From Candidatus Staskawiczbacteria bacterium (GTDB taxonomy: Bacteria > Patescibacteriota > Minisyncoccia > Minisyncoccales > Staskawiczbacteraceae), in the NCBI GenBank assembly GCA_023245155.1, contig JAHFKV010000001.1:75034-139033 (forward strand): 64,000 nucleotides of DNA, in the 5' to 3' direction. Numbering within the stretch: the stretch's first letter is position 1; the number at the start of each line of letters is the position of its first letter. The notes below the pieces were generated by a model. That model saw nothing but the letters and a program-made list of their open reading frames with translations, had not been told where the DNA came from and did no database searches. The position numbers and the translations under genes are program-made. Shown here piece after piece: positions 2,301-63,827 of the stretch.

Positions 2301-4298
2301 ATGAATTTCACATTTCCCAGTTTTTCCCAATGGAAACAAATTTTTAAAGTACTGAAAAAAGGTGAAAAAATAGCCCTTTTGATATTTGCCATAGCTGCCG
2401 TAGCTTCTTTTTTAGTTTTAGCAATCAATGTTTATTTAAGTAACACCAATGCGGTACCCACCTTGGGCGGAACCTATATTGAGGGCGCGGTAGGACAACC
2501 CAGGTTCATTAACCCGATTTACGGTGAAACCAACGACACTGACCGTGCGTTAATTGACTTAGTTTTTTCCGGGCTGATGACCTATGACAAAGAAGGCAAG
2601 ATAGTCAAAGATCTGGCGGACCGTTACACTGTTTCAAATGATGGAAGAACTTATGATTTTACGTTAAAAAATGCCACCTGGCACGATGGAAAACCATTAA
2701 CCGCCGACGACATCGTTTTTACCATAAAAACCATTCAAAATTCGGATTATAAAAGTCCGTTGAGGGCCAATTGGATCGGTGTTGATGTGCAAAAAGTTTC
2801 AGACCGATCGGTGCGTTTTGTGCTTAAGACCCCCTACAATTCTTTCTTGGAAAATTGCACCTTAAAAATTATTCCCGAACACATTTGGGGAACTATTTTA
2901 CCGGAGAACTTCGCTCTTTCTGCCTATAACTTGCAACCGATTGGTTCAGGACCCTTTGCATTTTCTTCCATCCACCAGGATAACCGTGGGTTCATCAATA
3001 CTCTGGACCTGGCATCAAACCGCAAATATTATGGCAATCTCTCCCTTATTGCAACCATATCATTCCATTTTTTTGAAAAAAAAGAAGAACTGGAGCAAGC
3101 GGCAAAAGCCGGTTCTATCAATGGGTTTACCTTAGCCGCCCTGGATAATAATGAAGCTGAAGCTGAGCAATCCGTAAAGGCTGGCTGGTCCGCGAACCAA
3201 AAGTTTTTAGCATATTCTTTTTCATTGCCAAGATACTTTGCCGTATTCTTCAATACCCAGAAAACATCGCTGTTCGCCGATAAAAATATACGAAAAGCAT
3301 TTTCATATGCAACTGACAAAGCAGAGCTGGTTACAACCATCAATACCCAAATGAAAGGCCATGCCATTGCCATCGATTCCCCCATTCTCCCTAATTTCTT
3401 TGATTACCAAAAACCCACCACCGTGTATACTTTTGATCTAAATCTGGCAAAAAGTCTGTTAGATAAATCCGGATTTAAAGAAGGTGATCAGGGTGCGCGC
3501 CAAAAAGTTACCAACAAAAAACCGGCCTTCCAATTTAAAAGTTATCTGAAACTCAATTCCAAAGGAACCGAAGTCACCCAGTTGCAAGCATGTCTGGTTA
3601 AACTAGATGATACTTTCAAGCAAATCTTAGCTGGGGAAACTAATGGAACCTATGGGAAAGCCACCCAGCAAGCGGTAAGTGAATTCCAGAAAAAGTATTT
3701 ACCGGACACCAATCCAACCGGTGAAACAGGCACTGGCACCCGAGCAAAACTCAACCAATTGTGCCTGGGCCCTTCCACTAATTCAACGCCTTTAAAATTG
3801 ACACTAACTACCGTCAACCAGCCACAATTAATCCAAGTTGCCAACCTATTAAAACAATACTGGCAAAGTGTAGGTGCCCAAGTGACAATCAATGCAGTGT
3901 CGCTGACCGATTTAAAACAGGTTATCAAAAGCCGAAATTATGACGCGCTATTATACGGAGAAGCTTTGGGAGCCAAACCTGATTTTTACCCCTTCTGGCA
4001 TTCTTCCCAAAGGCTAGATCCGGGTCTGAATCTTTCTTCATATGAGAATAAGCAGGCCGACCAGCTATTAAAAGACAGCCGAGAAACCATGGATTTATTA
4101 CTTAAAGAACAAAAATTAGAAAAGCTGCAAGATATTATTATTGATGATGCTCCGGCCCTGTTTTTATATAACCCCGATTACCTGTATTGGGTTTCCAGCA
4201 AGGTTCAAGGCATTGATACCGAAAAAATTATTGACCCAGCCAAAAGGTTTAGTAATATAACAAATTGGTATTTGCAGACCAAGCGGGTCTGGAAATAA
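2301..4298 (+). CDS. Extracellular solute-binding protein, family 5 (peptide/nickel type), with a nested peptidoglycan-binding domain
   Basis: N-terminal membrane anchor and SBP_bac_5-like regions (YTVSNDGRTYDFTLKNATWHDGKPLTADDIVFT ... FYPFWHSSQ). A PG_binding_1-like segment lies at aa ~415-488. Confidence 0.8.
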   Translation: MNFTFPSFSQWKQIFKVLKKGEKIALLIFAIAAVASFLVLAINVYLSNTNAVPTLGGTYIEGAVGQPRFINPIYGETNDTDRALIDLVFSGLMTYDKEGKIVKDLADRYTVSNDGRTYDFTLKNATWHDGKPLTADDIVFTIKTIQNSDYKSPLRANWIGVDVQKVSDRSVRFVLKTPYNSFLENCTLKIIPEHIWGTILPENFALSAYNLQPIGSGPFAFSSIHQDNRGFINTLDLASNRKYYGNLSLIATISFHFFEKKEELEQAAKAGSINGFTLAALDNNEAEAEQSVKAGWSANQKFLAYSFSLPRYFAVFFNTQKTSLFADKNIRKAFSYATDKAELVTTINTQMKGHAIAIDSPILPNFFDYQKPTTVYTFDLNLAKSLLDKSGFKEGDQGARQKVTNKKPAFQFKSYLKLNSKGTEVTQLQACLVKLDDTFKQILAGETNGTYGKATQQAVSEFQKKYLPDTNPTGETGTGTRAKLNQLCLGPSTNSTPLKLTLTTVNQPQLIQVANLLKQYWQSVGAQVTINAVSLTDLKQVIKSRNYDALLYGEALGAKPDFYPFWHSSQRLDPGLNLSSYENKQADQLLKDSRETMDLLLKEQKLEKLQDIIIDDAPALFLYNPDYLYWVSSKVQGIDTEKIIDPAKRFSNITNWYLQTKRVWK

Positions 4299-4304
4299 CA
4301 ATTT

Positions 4305-4397
4305 GCACAAAGGGGGTCGGGGAAATTAGGTATTTCCCCGTGTAGGAAATTATTCAAAACCGAGGGTTTTGAAGGAGCAAGCCCGAAGGGTGAGCGA
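4305..4397 (+). repeat. 93-nt structured intergenic repeat, copy A
   Basis: Matches the reverse complement of 46977..47069 at 91/93 positions (hand alignment). Contains hairpins CGGGGAAAT-taggt-ATTTCCCCG and TTCAAAACC-gag-GGTTTTGAA. Confidence 0.9.
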
Positions 4398-4426
4398 CCT
4401 AATTGGTACTATTAAACAAAACGAGT

Positions 4427-5005
4427 ATGGAAATAGATTTAACGGGTAAAACACCCGACGTGCGAAATCTGAGTGAATTAGAAAAAGTGGTCTATGACAA
4501 AGTTTGGTTTGCAGCAGCCGATAAAAGTGCGGTGCTGTACCAAATGTATCGTAAATTAAAAATTGAGAATGGTTTGCGCTATGATGTGACGATTATCCCG
4601 CCACGCATGCTGGGCGTGGAATTTGTCAAAACCAAAGGGCACGTTCATGCCGGGTTTTACGGCGAAGTCTACATGGTTTTGGATGGCGAAGGATTGTATT
4701 TTGCGCAAAAAGGCGATGAAGAAAAAATCGAAGATACATTTGTGGTACATGGTAAAAAAGGTGATGTGATTTTAATTCCGGCCGGATACGGACATGTAAC
4801 GATTAATCCGGGAAGTGCACCGCTTAAAACCGCCAATTGGGTGGCCGAAACTGACAAAGGAAATTTTGAACCGTTTGAAAGAAATCAAGGTGCGTGTTAT
4901 TACTATTTGCAAAGCGGCTGGGTAAAAAATCCAAACTACAAACAGGTTCCAGAATTGAGATTTGAAGAACCCAAAAAAGAAGTGCCAGCAAACTTAGATT
5001 TTTGA
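4427..5005 (+). CDS. Cupin-type (archaeal-type) glucose-6-phosphate isomerase
   Basis: TKGHVHAGFYGEVYMVLDGEG ... GDVILIPAGYGHVTINPG matches the cupin PGI family (PF06560). ATG at 4427 is preferred over the track's TTG at 4403. Confidence 0.8.
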   Translation: MEIDLTGKTPDVRNLSELEKVVYDKVWFAAADKSAVLYQMYRKLKIENGLRYDVTIIPPRMLGVEFVKTKGHVHAGFYGEVYMVLDGEGLYFAQKGDEEKIEDTFVVHGKKGDVILIPAGYGHVTINPGSAPLKTANWVAETDKGNFEPFERNQGACYYYLQSGWVKNPNYKQVPELRFEEPKKEVPANLDF

Positions 5006-5028
5006 AGGCGCCTCAATAAATTAAGCCT

Positions 5029-5110
5029 GCCCGGGTGGCGAAATTGGCAACCGCATACGCTTCAGGTGCGTACGCCGCAAGGCTTGCAGGTTCGACTCCT
5101 GTCCCGGGCA
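5029..5110 (+). tRNA. tRNA-Leu(CAG)
   Basis: Acceptor GCCCGGG/CCCGGGC, anticodon arm TACGC-TTCAGGT-GCGTA, long variable arm, T-loop TTCGACT. No encoded CCA. Confidence 0.9.
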
Positions 5111-5118
5111 CATAAATC

Positions 5119-5706
5119 ATGATTTCTGAAATTTTTGGATATTTATCGGGAATAGTAATTTTATTGGCTTTTATCCCCTATTTAAGAGATATTTTTCTGG
5201 GGAAAACCAAGCCAGAAAGAGCTTCTTGGTTAATATGGGGAATACTTGGTTCTATCGCGCTCGCCTCGCAATATGCAAAAGGTGCGTCATTCTCTTTATT
5301 GTTTAATGGCGTACAAACATTTGGAGATTTATTTATTTTCATATTGGCAATCCGCTATGGGATTGGCGGGTTCATGAAGAGAGATATCTTCGCTTTAATT
5401 GGTGTGGCCATAGGTCTCGTACTATGGTATCTTACAAAAGAAGCTGCGTTAGCCCTGTTGATTGTTATTTTTATTGACGGCACTGGCACAGTATTAACGA
5501 TAATTAAATCTTATGAAAATCCAACCACCGAAACTATGAGTGCATGGATATTAACTGCTTTAGGTGGATTACTAGCCTGCATAGCGGTTGGTAAATTCAA
5601 TATTATTTTATTAGCTTTCCCATTTTATACCTTCTTGGCAAACTTAGGAATCATAGCATCAATAAAATTGGGTCTTAAAAAACAAACTCTTAATATTAAA
5701 AATTAA
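5119..5706 (+). CDS. Hypothetical polytopic membrane protein (about 6 TM helices)
   Basis: 195 aa, hydrophobic throughout. The ATG lies 8 nt after tRNA-Leu. No confident family assignment. Confidence 0.55.
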   Translation: MISEIFGYLSGIVILLAFIPYLRDIFLGKTKPERASWLIWGILGSIALASQYAKGASFSLLFNGVQTFGDLFIFILAIRYGIGGFMKRDIFALIGVAIGLVLWYLTKEAALALLIVIFIDGTGTVLTIIKSYENPTTETMSAWILTALGGLLACIAVGKFNIILLAFPFYTFLANLGIIASIKLGLKKQTLNIKN

Positions 5707-5747
5707 CTAATTCGGAACTTCTGGTTCTGGATTCAAAAAACAAAAAT

Positions 5748-7616
5748 ATGATTAAACAAGATATGAGCAACCGCCAAGGGCGGGGTCCCGCTATAAGCGG
5801 GAAAAACACGGTGCAAGGTGCACCACACCAAAAACCTCGGCCGGCAAACCGCGGTAGATTTAAACGCATTGACCGCTCGGCCATTGGCAAAAACTGGAAA
5901 GAAACTCCAGGATTAAAACCCATGGTCTGGAAACCCGAAGACAACTTAAAAATTATCCCTTTGGGCGGGTGCGAAGAAGTCGGCCGCAACATGACCGTCT
6001 TTGAATATGGCCAAGATATTATCATTTTGGACATGGGCCTGCAATTCCCTGAACAAGATATGCCGGGAATTGATTACGTCATCCCGAACACCGAGTACCT
6101 GCGCGGAAAAGAAAAAAACATTAAAGCCGTTATTTTCAGTCACGGACACTTAGACCACATTGGAGCGGCTGCCATTTTGTTAAAAAAACTTGGCAATCCA
6201 CCCATCATTGGCCGACCATTAACCATTGAGATGATTAAGCACCGGGTGGAAGACCACGAACGCGGCAGCAGTAAAAAACTCAACGTGCAATACATTAAAG
6301 ATATTAACGAAAAAGTAAAACTGGGCAACTTTAACATTTCCTTTTTTGCCATTGACCACGCCATCATGGATGCTGTCGGTGTAATTTTTGAAACACCAGT
6401 AGCAACGGTTTTGCACCCTGGCGATTGGACCATTGAAAAAGACCCCGTTGGCCGTGATGTATTGCATTACCACCAATTGGCAAATTTGAAAAAGCCCGGC
6501 AAGCCAACCATTTTAATGCTGGAAGCGTTGGGCGCCATCAACAATAAACCACCCGTAACCGAACAGGAAATGATGGGTAACATCCAAAAAATTATTGGCT
6601 TGGCTCCTGGCCGTACCATTATTGCTACTTTTTCCAGCCAAACTGAAAGAATCAAGCAAGTCATGGAACTGGCAGCTGCCACCAACAAAAAAGTGGCTTT
6701 GGATGGCTTTAGTATGAAAATGAATATTGAACTGGCCACCCAACTTGGCTACATTAAAGTACCCAAGGGCGTAGTCATTCCCGTAGACTCCATTAACAGC
6801 TACCCGGATAACAAAGTCATCGTCATTTGCACCGGAGCCCAAGGCGAAGAAATGGCTGCTCTGCCCCGCATTATCGCTGGCAACCACAAATATATCCGTA
6901 TTAAAAAAGAAGATACGATTATCTTCTCGTCTTCAGTCATACCAGGAAATGAAAGGACGGTGCAACGAGTAAAAGACAACATTTACCGCCTGTCTGACAA
7001 CGTGTACCACAACGACATCATGAACGTGCACGCTTCCGGGCACACCAACATTGATGGTATCAAGCAAATGCTTTCCGAAGTCAAACCGGATTATTTCATT
7101 CCCGTGTATGGCAACCACTTTATGTTAAAAGAAGCTCAGCGCATTGGCTGGGGCATGGGCATTCCAAAAAACAAAACCTTTGTGCCAGACAACGGCAGTA
7201 TTATCAAATTCACCAACCAGGGGGCTGAAGTATTGAAAGAAAAGGTTCCCAGCAATTATGTGTTTGTGGATGGCCTTGGCGTGGGCGACGTGGGCGAAGT
7301 TGTTTTACGTGACCGCCAAGCCCTGGCTCAAGACGGCATGTTTGTGATTGTGACCATTATTGATAGCCAAACCGGCAAAGTCAAAGGCAGTCCGGATATT
7401 ATCAGCCGAGGGTTTGTGTACCTGCGCGAATCAAAAGATTTGCTCTCCCAAACCCGCAAAAAAGTCTTTGAAATTGTGGAAAAATCCGGCGGTCATGGCC
7501 AAACCACGCCCGACTGGAATTATGTGAAAGAAGAAATTCGCAATAAAGTTGGGGACTTTCTGGCCACCCGCACTTCAAGAAGACCCATGGTATTACCGGT
7601 GGTTATTGAGGTATAA
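5748..7616 (+). CDS. rnj: Ribonuclease J (metallo-beta-lactamase / beta-CASP) with a basic ~70-aa N-terminal extension
   Basis: IIPLGGCEEVGRNMTVFEYGQDIIILDMG, the HGHLDHIGA motif and a length and layout typical of RNase J. Confidence 0.9.
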   Translation: MIKQDMSNRQGRGPAISGKNTVQGAPHQKPRPANRGRFKRIDRSAIGKNWKETPGLKPMVWKPEDNLKIIPLGGCEEVGRNMTVFEYGQDIIILDMGLQFPEQDMPGIDYVIPNTEYLRGKEKNIKAVIFSHGHLDHIGAAAILLKKLGNPPIIGRPLTIEMIKHRVEDHERGSSKKLNVQYIKDINEKVKLGNFNISFFAIDHAIMDAVGVIFETPVATVLHPGDWTIEKDPVGRDVLHYHQLANLKKPGKPTILMLEALGAINNKPPVTEQEMMGNIQKIIGLAPGRTIIATFSSQTERIKQVMELAAATNKKVALDGFSMKMNIELATQLGYIKVPKGVVIPVDSINSYPDNKVIVICTGAQGEEMAALPRIIAGNHKYIRIKKEDTIIFSSSVIPGNERTVQRVKDNIYRLSDNVYHNDIMNVHASGHTNIDGIKQMLSEVKPDYFIPVYGNHFMLKEAQRIGWGMGIPKNKTFVPDNGSIIKFTNQGAEVLKEKVPSNYVFVDGLGVGDVGEVVLRDRQALAQDGMFVIVTIIDSQTGKVKGSPDIISRGFVYLRESKDLLSQTRKKVFEIVEKSGGHGQTTPDWNYVKEEIRNKVGDFLATRTSRRPMVLPVVIEV

Positions 7617-49880: not shown

Positions 49881-52376
49881 ATGGAATTGGAAGGACAATA
49901 CGACGCCAAGAAAATAGAAGACAAAATCTACAAACTGTGGGAGGACAGTGGCTTTTTTAATCCCGATAACCTGGATAAAAAACATAAAAAGCCGTTTACC
50001 ATTTTAATGCCACCGGCAAATGCCAATGGAAATTTGCACGCCGGGCACGCGCTGGTGATTACGATAGAAGACATTATGACTCGCTACAAACGCATGCAGG
50101 GTTTTAAAACCTTGTGGTTGCCAGGGCTTGACCATGCTGGATTTGAAACGCAAGTGGTGTATGAAAAAAAGTTGGAAAAAGAGGGGCGAAGCAGATTCAA
50201 AATGGCGCCGGAAGAATTATACCAAGAAATCTTGCAGTTTACTTTGGAAAACAAAAAAAATATTGAAGGGCAAATTAAAAAATTAGGTGCATCATGCGAT
50301 TGGAGCCGAGAAAAGTTTACATTGGACGCTGACATTGTCAAAACCGTTTACGAAACATTTGATAAATTAAAAAAAGATAATTTAGTGTACCGAGGCCGGA
50401 AGATTATTAATTGGTGTTCAAAGCATCAAACTTCTCTGTCTGATTTAGAAACTTTGGATGTGGAGCAAGCCGACAAATTATATTACTTAAAATATGGGCC
50501 TTTTGTGATTGCCACTGCCAGGCCGGAAACCAAGTTTGGCGATAAATACGTGGTGATGCACCCAAAAGACAAAAGGTATGCTAAATATCAAAATGGCGAA
50601 AAATTAAGCCTGGAATGGATAAATGGGCCCATAGAGGCCACGGTGGTGAAGGATGAGGCGATTGATATGGAATTTGGCACGGGAGCCATGACCATTACCC
50701 CTTGGCACGACGCTGTAGATTTTGGCATAGCCGAAAAACATAAGTTGGATAAGGAACAGGTGATTGATTTTTACGGCAAACTATTGCCCATTGCCGGTGA
50801 ATTTACGGGCATGAAAACTGGCGAAGCGCGCGCAAAGATTGTGGAAAAGTTACAAGCCAAAGGATTAGTAGAAAAAATTGAAGAAAATTATAAGCACGCG
50901 GTAAAAACGTGCTACAAGTGCAACAGTTTAATTGAGCCACAAGTTAAAGAGCAGTGGTTTTTAAAAATGAAACCACTGGCCGCGCCGGCCATTAAAGCCA
51001 TTGAAAGTGGTAAAATCACCTTCATTCCCGCTCATTATAAAAAAATATCGCTGCATTGGTTAAAGAATATTTTAGATTGGCCACTTTCTCGCCAAATCAT
51101 TTGGGGCATTAAGATACCAGCGTGGTTTAAAGATAAACCGAAAGTCAGAGATGAAAAAACTTGGGAGATGAAAATTTACGGGAGAGATATTTTCGATGGA
51201 ATCGTGAATGGTACAAAAAAAATTGAGACGCGGGCGGGACGACCTCGTGGCGAGGGCAAATATTGGGGCGACTTTAAACCAGGAGATACAGTTGTATTCA
51301 GTTTGGCGAACGAAAAAAATGATAACGTCATTTCCTCGGTTTTGCCAGTTCAAAAATCTGTAAAAAAGGTCTCGCATTTTGCCACTATCGAGGAAATGTT
51401 CAAAAAATATGAACCAGGCGATGATTATCCTGGAAAAACTGCAGCCCAAATTAAAAAATGGTGGAAACAACGGCCAGATTTGCACACAAGAATTCAACGC
51501 TATGGAATCTGGGCGCTTGAGCTCACAGAAGTAAAAGAACAAGAAGTTTACATTGGCACAACTCCCCCAAATATTGAGGATTGGCAACAAGATTCAGACG
51601 TTTTTGACACTTGGTTTTCTTCCGGCCAATGGCCCTTCGCTACGCTCAGGGCAGGCCAACCAAAAGACTTTAAGACATTTTACCCAACGGATGTGATGGA
51701 AACAGCCGGAGAAATTATTTTCTTTTGGGTGGCGCGCATGATAATGCTGGGAATTTACACCACCGGAAAAGTTCCGTTTAAAACGGTTTATTTGCATGGC
51801 TTGGTTTTGGATGCCAAAGGCCAAAAAATGTCCAAAAGTAAGGGAAACGTGATCAATCCAATGGAAATTACCGACAAATACGGCACGGATGCGCTAAGAA
51901 TTGGCTTGGTAATGGGTAATACGCCGGGGCAAAGTTTGGCATTGGATGAAAATAAAATTAAAGGCTACAGAAATTTTGCCAACAAAATCTGGAACGCGGC
52001 TAAGTTTGTGCAAATGAATGTGGCTGATTCTGATACCAAGGCAAAAATAAAACTGCCTGCCGCTCATAAAAAGAATCTGAAAGAACTACAAATTCTCAAA
52101 AAAGAAATTACCAAATTAATGGACGATTTTAAGTTTTATATCGCTGCGGAAAAAATCTACCATTACTTTTGGCACACGTTTTGTGATAAGATTATAGAAG
52201 AAAGCAAGGTGCAATTGGCTGACACAAAAACTAAACAGGCCACGCAGTACATGCTTTTGGAAATTTTAACTGAATCACTGAAAATACTCCACCCGTTCAT
52301 GCCATTTATCACTGAAGAAATCTGGCAACAGCTTAATATGCAGTCATTGCTCATGGTTGAGCAGTGGCCAACATAA
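49881..52376 (+). CDS. valS: Valine--tRNA ligase with a 154-aa insertion containing an ASCH-like domain; no C-terminal coiled coil
   Basis: PPANANGNLHAGHA (HIGH-type), KMSKS, an editing domain and WPLSRQIIWGIKIPAWF ... DVFDTWFSS. Confidence 0.95.
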   Translation: MELEGQYDAKKIEDKIYKLWEDSGFFNPDNLDKKHKKPFTILMPPANANGNLHAGHALVITIEDIMTRYKRMQGFKTLWLPGLDHAGFETQVVYEKKLEKEGRSRFKMAPEELYQEILQFTLENKKNIEGQIKKLGASCDWSREKFTLDADIVKTVYETFDKLKKDNLVYRGRKIINWCSKHQTSLSDLETLDVEQADKLYYLKYGPFVIATARPETKFGDKYVVMHPKDKRYAKYQNGEKLSLEWINGPIEATVVKDEAIDMEFGTGAMTITPWHDAVDFGIAEKHKLDKEQVIDFYGKLLPIAGEFTGMKTGEARAKIVEKLQAKGLVEKIEENYKHAVKTCYKCNSLIEPQVKEQWFLKMKPLAAPAIKAIESGKITFIPAHYKKISLHWLKNILDWPLSRQIIWGIKIPAWFKDKPKVRDEKTWEMKIYGRDIFDGIVNGTKKIETRAGRPRGEGKYWGDFKPGDTVVFSLANEKNDNVISSVLPVQKSVKKVSHFATIEEMFKKYEPGDDYPGKTAAQIKKWWKQRPDLHTRIQRYGIWALELTEVKEQEVYIGTTPPNIEDWQQDSDVFDTWFSSGQWPFATLRAGQPKDFKTFYPTDVMETAGEIIFFWVARMIMLGIYTTGKVPFKTVYLHGLVLDAKGQKMSKSKGNVINPMEITDKYGTDALRIGLVMGNTPGQSLALDENKIKGYRNFANKIWNAAKFVQMNVADSDTKAKIKLPAAHKKNLKELQILKKEITKLMDDFKFYIAAEKIYHYFWHTFCDKIIEESKVQLADTKTKQATQYMLLEILTESLKILHPFMPFITEEIWQQLNMQSLLMVEQWPT

Positions 52377-53823: not shown

Positions 53824-54144
53824 CTATAAACCAAGGGCAAAACGGATGAGACCTACCAAAGAGAAGGCTACCAGGCCCACAAACACCCCAGCTACCGCCC
53901 ACACTAACGCTTTATTGGCTTCGTGTATTTTAGTGGCATCACCATGAGCAAAAAGATATTTTATGCCAGCGTAAAGCAACATAACAACTACTAAACCGCT
54001 AAACACCGGCCACACCACCATGTTTAAAAGCCTATCAATAATGCCGACCAACCAGGCATCGGGGGCGGGAGGAGCCGCTAACGTCGCTACCGGAAGTAAC
54101 AAAAAAAGTATGGGGGAAAGTAGGAGAAATAATTTCTTGTTCAT
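53824..54144 (-). CDS. Small VirB2/TrbC-like (T4SS-pilin-like) membrane protein, paralog 1
   Basis: MNKK signal peptide plus two TM helices joined by the loop ...FAHGDATKIHEANKALVWAVAG. Confidence 0.65.
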   Translation of the reverse strand: MNKKLFLLLSPILFLLLPVATLAAPPAPDAWLVGIIDRLLNMVVWPVFSGLVVVMLLYAGIKYLFAHGDATKIHEANKALVWAVAGVFVGLVAFSLVGLIRFALGL

Positions 54145-62886: not shown

Positions 62887-62963
62887 GGGCCTGTAGCTCA
62901 ACTGGCTAGAGCAGACGACTTATACTCGTCCGGTTGGGGGTTCGAGTCCCTCCGGGCCCACCA
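62887..62963 (+). tRNA. tRNA-Ile(UAU)
   Basis: GGGCCTGTAGCTCAACTGGCTAGAGC... (Ile-like body), anticodon arm GACGA-CTTATAC-TCGTC. The encoded CCA's final A is the A of the next ATG. Confidence 0.85.
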
Positions 62964-63752: not shown

Positions 63753-63827
63753 GCGCGATTAGCTCAGTGGTAGAGCATCTACTTGACGTGTAGAGGGTCG
63801 GGGGTCCAATTCCCTCATCGCGCACCA
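63753..63827 (+). tRNA. tRNA-Val(GAC)
   Basis: Acceptor GCGCGAT/ATCGCGC, anticodon arm TCTAC-TTGACGT-GTAGA. The encoded CCA overlaps the next ATG. Confidence 0.88.

Follow-up and report, generated by a model that had tools for sequence, protein, structure and literature searches.

What could a segment of 156 residues be doing in the middle of the catalytic body of a valyl-tRNA synthetase (ValRS)? The question is raised by the valS gene of a Candidatus Staskawiczbacteria bacterium (Patescibacteriota) which is located in a stretch of 64,000 nucleotides of contig JAHFKV010000001.1 (assembly GCA_023245155.1, positions 75,034 to 139,033), here called the window. The segment contains a complete, independently folding ASCH domain, nested via short linkers in the surface-exposed, hypervariable hairpin of the connective-peptide region CP3. 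Only lately has it been suggested that ASCH domains erase N4-acetylcytidine (ac4C), a tRNA mark. An ASCH domain with an intact motif which is built into an enzyme that binds tRNA-Val, with kin in leucyl-tRNA synthetases (LeuRS) and in class II synthetases, constitutes a natural experiment on substrate targeting. Further, it shows that in ultra-small bacteria aminoacyl-tRNA synthetases (aaRSs) have gained enzymatic modules in surface loops, a bacterial counterpart of the domain accretion of eukaryotic aaRSs. There is also a consequence for annotation, as such proteins now carry plain labels such as 'valine--tRNA ligase' or 'class I tRNA ligase family protein'.

Identity of the insert

Searches using the sequence of the insert by itself were unproductive. 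Neither the 154-aa insert nor its 132-aa core has a match to the Pfam ASCH family PF04266 at E <= 1. The sole Pfam match, Sulfotransfer_1 with an E of 0.05, was discarded as chance, and phmmer of the insert alone against the PDB returned merely weak L16 matches (E 0.27). Thus, a family profile was required. An exhaustive phmmer search of 1.8 billion representatives yielded 26 relatives. The best of these are other ValRSs with the expected Pfam domains and the module at the same site, e.g., P0121 with 61% identity; the remaining ones are proteins of 109-139 aa, some of them above the Pfam ASCH threshold. PF04266 is matched by 14 of the 26, and P0132 and P0133 exceed its gathering score. When the profile of the 26 relatives was run against the PDB, the archaeal ASCH structures 2Z0T (E 1.9e-18), 1S04 (6.9e-17) and 1XNE (9e-13) were retrieved.

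Structure prediction agrees. An AlphaFold2 model of the insert based on the alignment of the relatives has a predicted local distance difference test (pLDDT) of 93.9 and a predicted template-modelling score (pTM) of 0.84, with secondary structure elements E3-9, H11-19, E24-28 ... E119-126 (E, strand; H, helix). A Foldseek comparison with the PDB placed ASCH structures in all of the top 11 positions, among them 2Z0T, 1S04, 1XNE, 2KKU, ZmASCH and 3IUW; the template-modelling (TM) score against 2Z0T is 0.82, normalised to the target. The initial annotation, made by reading the sequence, had proposed an ASCH/PUA-like insert and had suggested profile and AlphaFold comparisons as checks. Both recover the similarity, and the signature GxKxxExR is intact.

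The ASCH octapeptide has been defined as GxKxx[E/T/S]xR (preprint 10.64898/2026.02.27.708502). In the window it reads GTKKIETR, the 'GKER' type. Its G20, K22, E25 and R27 (numbering of the insert model) are invariant in 11 aligned copies, i.e., in 10 nested in ValRSs and in the short open reading frame (ORF) P0124. In alignment A3 the stretches K36-F41 and G44-D45 are likewise invariant. The resulting lineage motif, KIETRAG...KYWGDFKPGD, is found at the same ValRS site in scattered Patescibacteria. The sequence alignment additionally displays a conserved Phe (aa 438), 8 residues ahead of the octapeptide Lys, and conserved Tyr/Trp residues. In TthASCH the nucleoside is positioned by two aromatic residues, Tyr14 and Tyr81.

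How does the domain compare with known ASCH proteins? The fold is shared with archaeal PH0355 (2Z0T), PF0455 (1S04) and PF0469/PF0470 (1XNE), and the order of elements is the same: beta1, helix, beta2 with GxKxxExR, GD strand, helical excursion and terminal strand. TM scores between these structures and the window model are 0.74-0.82 (target-normalised) at identities of 19-24%. The archaeal proteins are free and 109-113 aa long, whereas the window copy is nested inside ValRS and about 20 residues longer, with a KYWGDF loop extended in comparison to PH0355 and a WW motif. The octapeptide subtype, including Lys, Glu and Arg, is shared with TthASCH (2DP9), EOLA1 and the ASCH domain of TRIP4, in which octapeptide Lys and Glu are essential (preprint 10.64898/2026.02.27.708502). 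These three are free-standing or the C-terminal domain of a transcription coactivator; the window copy is nested in an enzyme. All 19 ASCH proteins tested in that preprint, GKER-type included, strip ac4C from tRNA in vitro. YqfB from Escherichia coli, to which the initial annotation had likened the insert, has the ASCH fold and the overall sequence pattern in common with it. YqfB is a small hydrolase acting on N4-acylcytidine (PMC6972931). However, at the sixth octapeptide position, where its type has Thr or Ser, YqfB has a Thr (GKTR subgroup) and the window copy Glu, so that the latter is not of the YqfB type, and YqfB is absent among the significant PDB profile and Foldseek matches of the window ASCH domain.

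That hydrolase families exist both free and nested in aaRSs is not without precedent. The INS domain of bacterial prolyl-tRNA synthetase is akin to YbaK, and the editing domains of alanyl- and threonyl-tRNA synthetases are akin to AlaX. The principle, a small hydrolase either free or nested, is the same. Yet these editing domains act on mischarged tRNA and are ancient and near-universal, whereas the ASCH module has an unrelated fold, occurs sporadically and is laterally mobile.

Host enzyme and site of insertion

Apart from the insert the window ValRS is intact: it retains the HIGH and KMSKS signatures together with the CP1 editing and anticodon-binding domains. Pfam assigns tRNA-synt_1 (E 4.8e-120) and Anticodon_1 (E 1.4e-26). 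ValRS from Thermus thermophilus (1GAX) aligns with an E of 2.2e-164 in two blocks, window aa 1-418 with 1GAX residues 1-418 and aa 569-830 with residues 447-706. In an alignment of 25 ValRS sequences H53, G55 and H56 as well as K649, S651, K652 and S653 are invariant, M650 nearly so. Residues 199-335 align with 1WKA/1WK9, structures of the editing domain of T. thermophilus ValRS in isolation (E 4e-18; 1WKA 4.1e-18). The assignment as a class Ia ValRS is further backed by a locus which is orthologous to those of annotated ValRSs. The protein is identical to database protein P0001. It was claimed at the outset that it stops after the anticodon-binding domain. This is borne out: Pfam finds no match to the coiled coil PF10458 in the window ValRS and the 1GAX alignment stops at residue 706 of 862.

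The conserved SRQIIWGIKIPAWF block ends at aa 416 and DVFDTWFSS begins at aa 573. Between them lie 156 residues where 1GAX has 28, in agreement with the few tens which the initial annotation had given for T. thermophilus. The insertion within the catalytic core that it described is real and corresponds to region CP3 of the catalytic body. Its location of the core, 51168..51533 (MKIYG...ALELTEV), is exact; its count of 154 residues has to be raised to 156, and its end, 51590, lies two codons short of the actual 51596.

In T. thermophilus ValRS (1GAX) and isoleucyl-tRNA synthetase (IleRS, 1ILE) CP3 takes the same topological position, between ...WG..IP.W and D.FDTWF.S; the alignment of 1ILE to the window ValRS omits residues 461-513 at this site. 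CP3 forms the connection from CP2 to the Rossmann fold's second half; in the IleRS of T. thermophilus it contains a zinc motif (PMC7191050). By comparison with the CP3 of 1GAX and 1ILE, the window protein has a plain hairpin in place of the zinc knuckle, and a 124-aa enzyme-like domain protrudes from its tip. The remnant of the native hairpin, QEVYIGTTPPNIEDWQQDS, aligns with the insert-less hairpin type SEVYVGENSPEEPDWIRDE of P0049 and P0104. Versus this type the net gain is about 135 aa (aa 420-554), placed between WFKD and QEVYIG. A full-length model, of moderate quality overall (pLDDT 75.2, pTM 0.66) with 79-92 in the ASCH blocks, has short strands flanking the ASCH domain which make up the CP3 hairpin.

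How variable is this site? The 120 best ValRS homologues, from Parcubacteria including several named Staskawiczbacteria, were aligned. In the 119 closest relatives CP3 takes one of four forms: a linker of 2-10 aa, a CxxC...CxxC zinc ribbon of about 29 aa, sometimes with low-complexity inserts, a 42-aa variant, and a plain 22-aa hairpin, (V/A)WYKNSEVYVGENSPEEPDWIRDE. The 156-aa segment is found in none of the 119. Stretches of 10-20 low-complexity residues, e.g., QSQEFSNEIATSPSEAPRNDE, are located within the zinc ribbon of the insert-less P0017, P0029, P0040, P0044, P0092 and P0118, which indicates that the CP3 loop freely takes extra sequence.

An intein or homing element was considered and rejected; there is no Hint, intein or endonuclease Pfam match, the boundaries are AWF|KDK and QDS|DVF, where an intein would have Cys, Ser or Thr at its N-terminus and His-Asn plus a nucleophile at its C-terminal end, and the segment folds as ASCH. 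No anomaly in G+C content (GC) is seen at the insert. An imperfect direct repeat of 19 nucleotides (79% identical, 504 nucleotides apart) flanks it at 51066..51084 and 51570..51588. The copies encode NILDWP and NIEDWQ, whose shared DW already belongs to the native hairpin; the repeat is probably due to chance.

Distribution of nested ASCH modules

ASCH modules have entered aaRSs of four families and both classes far above chance expectation. For the lineage of the window copy, lineage A, a scan of GTDB produced nine loci. Seven of them are at ValRS CP3 (L001, L002, L003, L005, L006, L007, L008). In the eighth, L004 from Liptonbacteria (3174-6158), the module occupies another ValRS loop, after DTWFSSGLWTFTTLGWP and before HPTS, and CP3 is a zinc ribbon; the ninth, L009, is a frameshifted fragment. 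Thus, all 8 intact loci are nested in ValRSs.

A sister lineage, B, has the motif K-T-I-E-T-R-A-L-N-P-E-E-P-x-R-Y-F-G and was encountered in fragments of LeuRS and of the GAD region of aspartyl-tRNA synthetase (AspRS). A metagenome scan with lineage B returned 93 relatives, of which 80 were kept; loci with UGA read as Gly were re-read and representative hosts checked with Pfam. The host counts, from pattern-seeded scans and inclusive of redundant contigs, are 60 loci in LeuRS, 15 in ValRS (CP3 site or CP1 region), 2 in class II synthetases of the Asp/Lys/Asn type, and one each in a UvrA-like protein, in a FAD amine-oxidase-like protein and free-standing. Accordingly, 77 of the 80 have one of these three kinds of synthetase as host. 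Fifteen 'small free-standing' metagenome matches turned out to be mostly artefacts of translation with table 11. By our own count there are at least seven distinct combinations of aaRS host and site, against two non-aaRS hosts. They comprise ValRS CP3 and the L004 loop for lineage A, and ValRS CP3, ValRS CP1, LeuRS and Lys-type class II for lineage B, together with the Asp-type synthetase suggested by a fragment (see below).

In the class II hosts (L066:3272-5248 and L087; Pfam tRNA-synt_2 plus OB) the ASCH domain sits inside the N-terminal OB-fold region. In a fragment of 106 aa, P0179, a match to the AspRS GAD domain runs directly into the start of an ASCH domain; this one fragment suggests an Asp-type synthetase as a further host. 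The two non-synthetase hosts, the UvrA-like protein and the FAD amine-oxidase/phytoene-desaturase-like protein, are encoded at L056:1517-4513 and L061:3596-5536 (code 25).

In a rough neighbour-joining tree without support values the modules cluster by host and site; the two lineages separate, and both occupy ValRS CP3. Judged by this tree, two ASCH lineages appear to have reached ValRS CP3 independently.

Other domains share these sites. His_Phos_1 is nested at ValRS CP3, beside or apart from ASCH, in P0121, P0122 (=L006), P0129 and P0142 as well as in L011:2090-5746, L035:3170-6676 and L072:3350-7480, the last with two copies. LeuRSs of 1140-1353 aa with domains beyond ASCH are encoded at L018:1979-6037, L059:2426-6058 and L041:2051-5476 (code 25). 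Nested in LeuRS are full Ham1/ITPase domains ahead of the anticodon-binding domain (E 5e-57 and 2e-51), in one case a serine hydrolase (PF06821) after the editing domain, and in one case a NUDIX domain (E 2e-11). P0123 has two differing ASCH domains in tandem at ValRS CP3 (aa 447-571 and 576-663); of these, the N-terminal one belongs to the lineage of the window copy, and the C-terminal one is directly positive for Pfam ASCH (E 6e-11).

Among free-standing ASCH proteins, P0160 (locus L097) has a His_Phos_1 gene immediately adjacent. In the case of P0147 (6001-6357; L092-L096) the next gene upstream, transcribed in the same direction, encodes a GNAT acetyltransferase; a NUDIX gene follows two genes beyond GNAT, and a DNA methylase/restriction pair is located downstream. 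A pairing of GNAT and ASCH is known from other contexts (PMC7641849).

Some of the loci use deviant codons. In-frame TGA occurs where Gly is conserved in L041, L049, L078, L012, L056, L061 and L088, consistent with code 25. In the first three of these loci CGA is found at conserved Trp positions of LeuRS (DWVFSRQRYWG) and true Arg positions use AGA. This pattern resembles a reassignment of CGA to Trp which has reportedly occurred in Absconditabacterales.

The initial annotation was not aware of a description of this architecture. A full-text literature search for ASCH with ValRS, aminoacyl-tRNA synthetase or insertion gave no paper describing it, and in the literature on synthetases of the candidate phyla radiation (CPR) nothing relevant to nested ASCH was found. 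Database names of the ASCH-bearing proteins mention the synthetase only, e.g., 'valyl-tRNA synthetase' or 'class I tRNA ligase family protein'. The uniqueness which had been implied has to be abandoned, as the architecture recurs in public data in at least 8 independent genomes. The mapping of the insert among CPR ValRSs, which had been recommended, resulted in a distribution scattered over Patescibacteria and involving two ASCH lineages.

Origin of the module

When did the module enter this gene? The closest ValRSs for which DNA is available, L090 and L091, share the window's gene order (TsaD, ValRS, PrsW, HSP20 and pilins) and have no insert. Their proteins are 91% identical to the window protein in the N-terminal flank and 77-81% in the C-terminal flank. 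The DNA alignment shows a clean indel at ~51120..51594 with flanks of 80-90% identity on both sides. A mosaic gene with a breakpoint at the insert was discarded, since the sliding DNA identity has no step and amounts to 87-90% right downstream. An insert-less allele, P0004, and the window protein were found together in ENA sample ERZ27296333.

The ASCH domain of the window is 56-64% identical to modules in ValRSs of Saccharibacteria, Komeilibacteria, Liptonbacteria and others, the bodies of which are only 41-53% identical to that of the window. In pairs which seem to be vertically inherited the relation differs, with identities of ASCH versus body of 75% versus 85% and 56% versus 64%. Because ASCH is not better conserved than the body in such pairs, the pattern in the window signals lateral acquisition of a cassette. 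We infer that the module probably entered this valS recently, by lateral transfer or by recombination from another ASCH-bearing valS.

Once acquired, the module seems to be maintained. The ratio of nonsynonymous to synonymous substitution rates (dN/dS), with dS near or at saturation, was estimated as 0.086 for ASCH and 0.067 for the body in the pair L006/L007, and as 0.081 and 0.093, respectively, in L002/L003. By these estimates the ASCH module is under purifying selection.

Possible functions of the nested domain

Which function, then, can be attributed to the domain? Tentatively, we favor a role as an ASCH-type N4-acylcytidine amidohydrolase or reader which uses the synthetase as a tRNA platform; the sequence comparisons make this a fair candidate, short of an even chance. 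The invariant Lys, Glu and Arg of the octapeptide argue that ASCH activity is kept, which would comprise binding and amide hydrolysis of N4-acylated cytidine of the ac4C type. The strong preference for aaRSs of both classes points to the synthetase as a tRNA-binding platform for the nested domain and, consequently, to a tRNA cytidine as likely substrate, either on tRNA bound to the synthetase or on tRNA released by it. The outcome would be an added hydrolytic 'eraser' or inspection activity next to aminoacylation and editing.

Several observations weigh against this proposal. The insertion sites differ by host, i.e., CP3, CP1, the loop after DTWFSS...GWP and the class II OB fold; no one tRNA nucleotide can be their shared target in cis. 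In bacteria ac4C is known from C34 of elongator tRNA-Met rather than from tRNA-Val (preprint 10.64898/2026.02.27.708502). The isoelectric points (pI) of the nested copies range from 5.0 to 9.2 and are not consistently basic; that of the window copy is 9.2. The single sequence, as described above, escapes PF04266. Finally, the co-nested His_Phos_1, Ham1 and NUDIX domains and the two non-aaRS hosts accord just as well with an autonomous enzyme acting on nucleotides or nucleosides.

The last point leads to an alternative which we consider possible, if doubtful: a salvage or 'house-cleaning' enzyme that resides in a permissive loop, deacetylates free N4-acetylcytidine or allied nucleosides and nucleotides in the manner of YqfB and EOLA1, and has no part in valylation or tRNA biology. 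ValRS would provide just constitutive expression and an insertion-tolerant loop to an organism dependent on scavenging. If so, it would illustrate how a streamlined genome accommodates additional enzymes within its essential genes. Small hydrolases from families with characterised nucleotide-acting members are indeed co-nested (His_Phos_1 in ValRS; Ham1/ITPase, serine hydrolase and NUDIX in LeuRS), ASCH is nested in the UvrA-like and FAD amine-oxidase-like proteins too, the insertion sites vary, the CP3 hotspot accommodates from 2 to 156 residues, and free-standing relatives lie near NUDIX, GNAT and His_Phos_1 genes. Salvage is the documented role of YqfB and has been suggested for EOLA1. This has to be set against the extreme host bias, with 77 of 80 metagenome loci and 8 of 8 intact GTDB loci in aaRSs, and about 7 of 9 distinct host/site combinations, again in our own count. 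The aaRSs make up, by estimate, only about 3% of the genes in such genomes, and the salvage reading gives no reason for the absence of ribosomal or other abundant proteins from the hosts. A more far-reaching reading is unlikely in our view. In Patescibacteria aaRSs would serve as scaffolds for a set of nested repair or sanitation hydrolases (ASCH, His_Phos_1, NUDIX, Ham1, serine hydrolase) acting on the clients of the synthetases, and ASCH would undo N-acylation damage of tRNA or aminoacyl-tRNA during binding to the cognate aaRS. Candidate lesions would be ac4C-type marks or N-acetyl-aminoacyl-tRNA produced by GNAT toxins. The scaffold would then furnish a third hydrolytic checkpoint beside synthesis and editing, spreading between genomes as an in-frame cassette.

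Three further explanations dispense with catalysis, with function, or with the architecture itself. A non-catalytic appendage, a PUA-like barrel which gives the enzyme one more tRNA contact, at the elbow or the acceptor arm, and a higher affinity or specificity, as PUA domains of RNA-modifying enzymes do, has a small chance of being correct. PUA/ASCH domains are of a fold generally described as nucleic-acid binding and tied to the translation apparatus (PMC7641849), TRIP4 and ZmASCH bind nucleic acids, the window copy is basic, and these ValRSs are devoid of the coiled-coil arm. The initial annotation had gone as far as to suggest that ASCH compensates for the lost arm. This must be dismissed, because arm and ASCH vary independently: 119 of the 119 closest relatives (643-771 aa) are armless without having ASCH, and conversely the ASCH-bearing ValRSs P0121, P0128, P0130, L011 and L072 retain the arm. 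In addition, the charge is not conserved among nested copies, and the putative catalytic Lys, Glu and Arg are invariant, though these could also serve binding. Slimmer still is the prospect of a functionless or selfish in-frame insertion which is tolerated in CP3 and spreads by recombination between valS alleles. It would account for the hypervariable site, the sporadic distribution, the coexistence of both alleles in one sample (ERZ27296333) and the signs of lateral movement. A dN/dS of about 0.08 equal to that of the essential body, the invariant octapeptide, a fold predicted at high confidence, the lack of intein/Hint or endonuclease domains in Pfam and the arrival of two ASCH lineages at the same site all speak against it. 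An assembly chimera or frameshift artefact, lastly, is very unlikely. Exactly this protein is present in one 90% cluster only, yet three contigs of 0.2-1 Mb encode it in identical form, the segment keeps the reading frame and its GC is uniform, and homologous architectures exist in many independent assemblies, from at least 8 independent genomes.

Features of the window

The features of the valS gene are compiled in Table 1.

Table 1. Coordinates of valS and its elements in the window; residue numbers (aa) refer to the 831-aa protein.
Feature	Coordinates	Strand	Basis
valS ORF, 831 aa, class Ia valyl-tRNA synthetase with nested ASCH, no C-terminal coiled coil	49881..52376	+	ORF list, Pfam, 1GAX
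HIGH signature HAGH, aa 53-56	50037..50048	+	Sequence
CP1 editing domain, aa ~199-335	50475..50885	+	Similarity to 1WKA/1WK9
IPAWF, end of the conserved ValRS sequence ahead of the insert, first strand of CP3 hairpin	51114..51128	+	Strand E414-417, full-length model
Full 156-aa segment, aa 417-572, made up of linker, ASCH domain and what remains of the CP3 hairpin	51129..51596	+	Alignments with 1GAX and relatives
N-terminal linker KDKPKVRDEK, aa 417-426, predicted flexible	51129..51158	+	pLDDT <50 at 419-424, full-length model
ASCH (PUA-like beta-barrel) domain, aa 427-550	51159..51530	+	AlphaFold2, Foldseek, family profile, Pfam on relatives
ASCH octapeptide GTKKIETR (GxKxxExR, 'GKER' type), aa 444-451; putative catalytic K446/E449 and R451	51210..51233	+	Sequence
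Aromatic loop KYWGDF, then conserved GD strand, aa 460-472, subfamily-specific	51258..51296	+	Alignment A3
Native CP3 hairpin remnant, aa 554-572	51540..51596	+	Alignment with P0049, P0104; strands E556-558, E568-570
DVFDTWFSS, restart of the catalytic body of ValRS	51597..51623	+	1GAX match, 25-sequence alignment
KMSKS signature, aa 649-653	51825..51839	+	Sequence
Anticodon-binding helical domain, then protein terminus	52077..52370	+	Pfam Anticodon_1, aa 733-830

Downstream of valS and 3' of HSP20 lies a cluster of small genes resembling pilins of the type IV secretion system (53824..54144 and beyond); it is conserved in the sister genomes L090 and L091. Two tRNA genes are located toward the end of the window. 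A tRNA-Val(GAC) gene at 63753..63827 has an encoded CCA and discriminator A73. A tRNA-Ile gene at 62887..62963 has the anticodon TAT (UAU). Most bacteria read AUA by a lysidine-modified CAU tRNA, and a tRNA-Ile(UAU) would be unusual.

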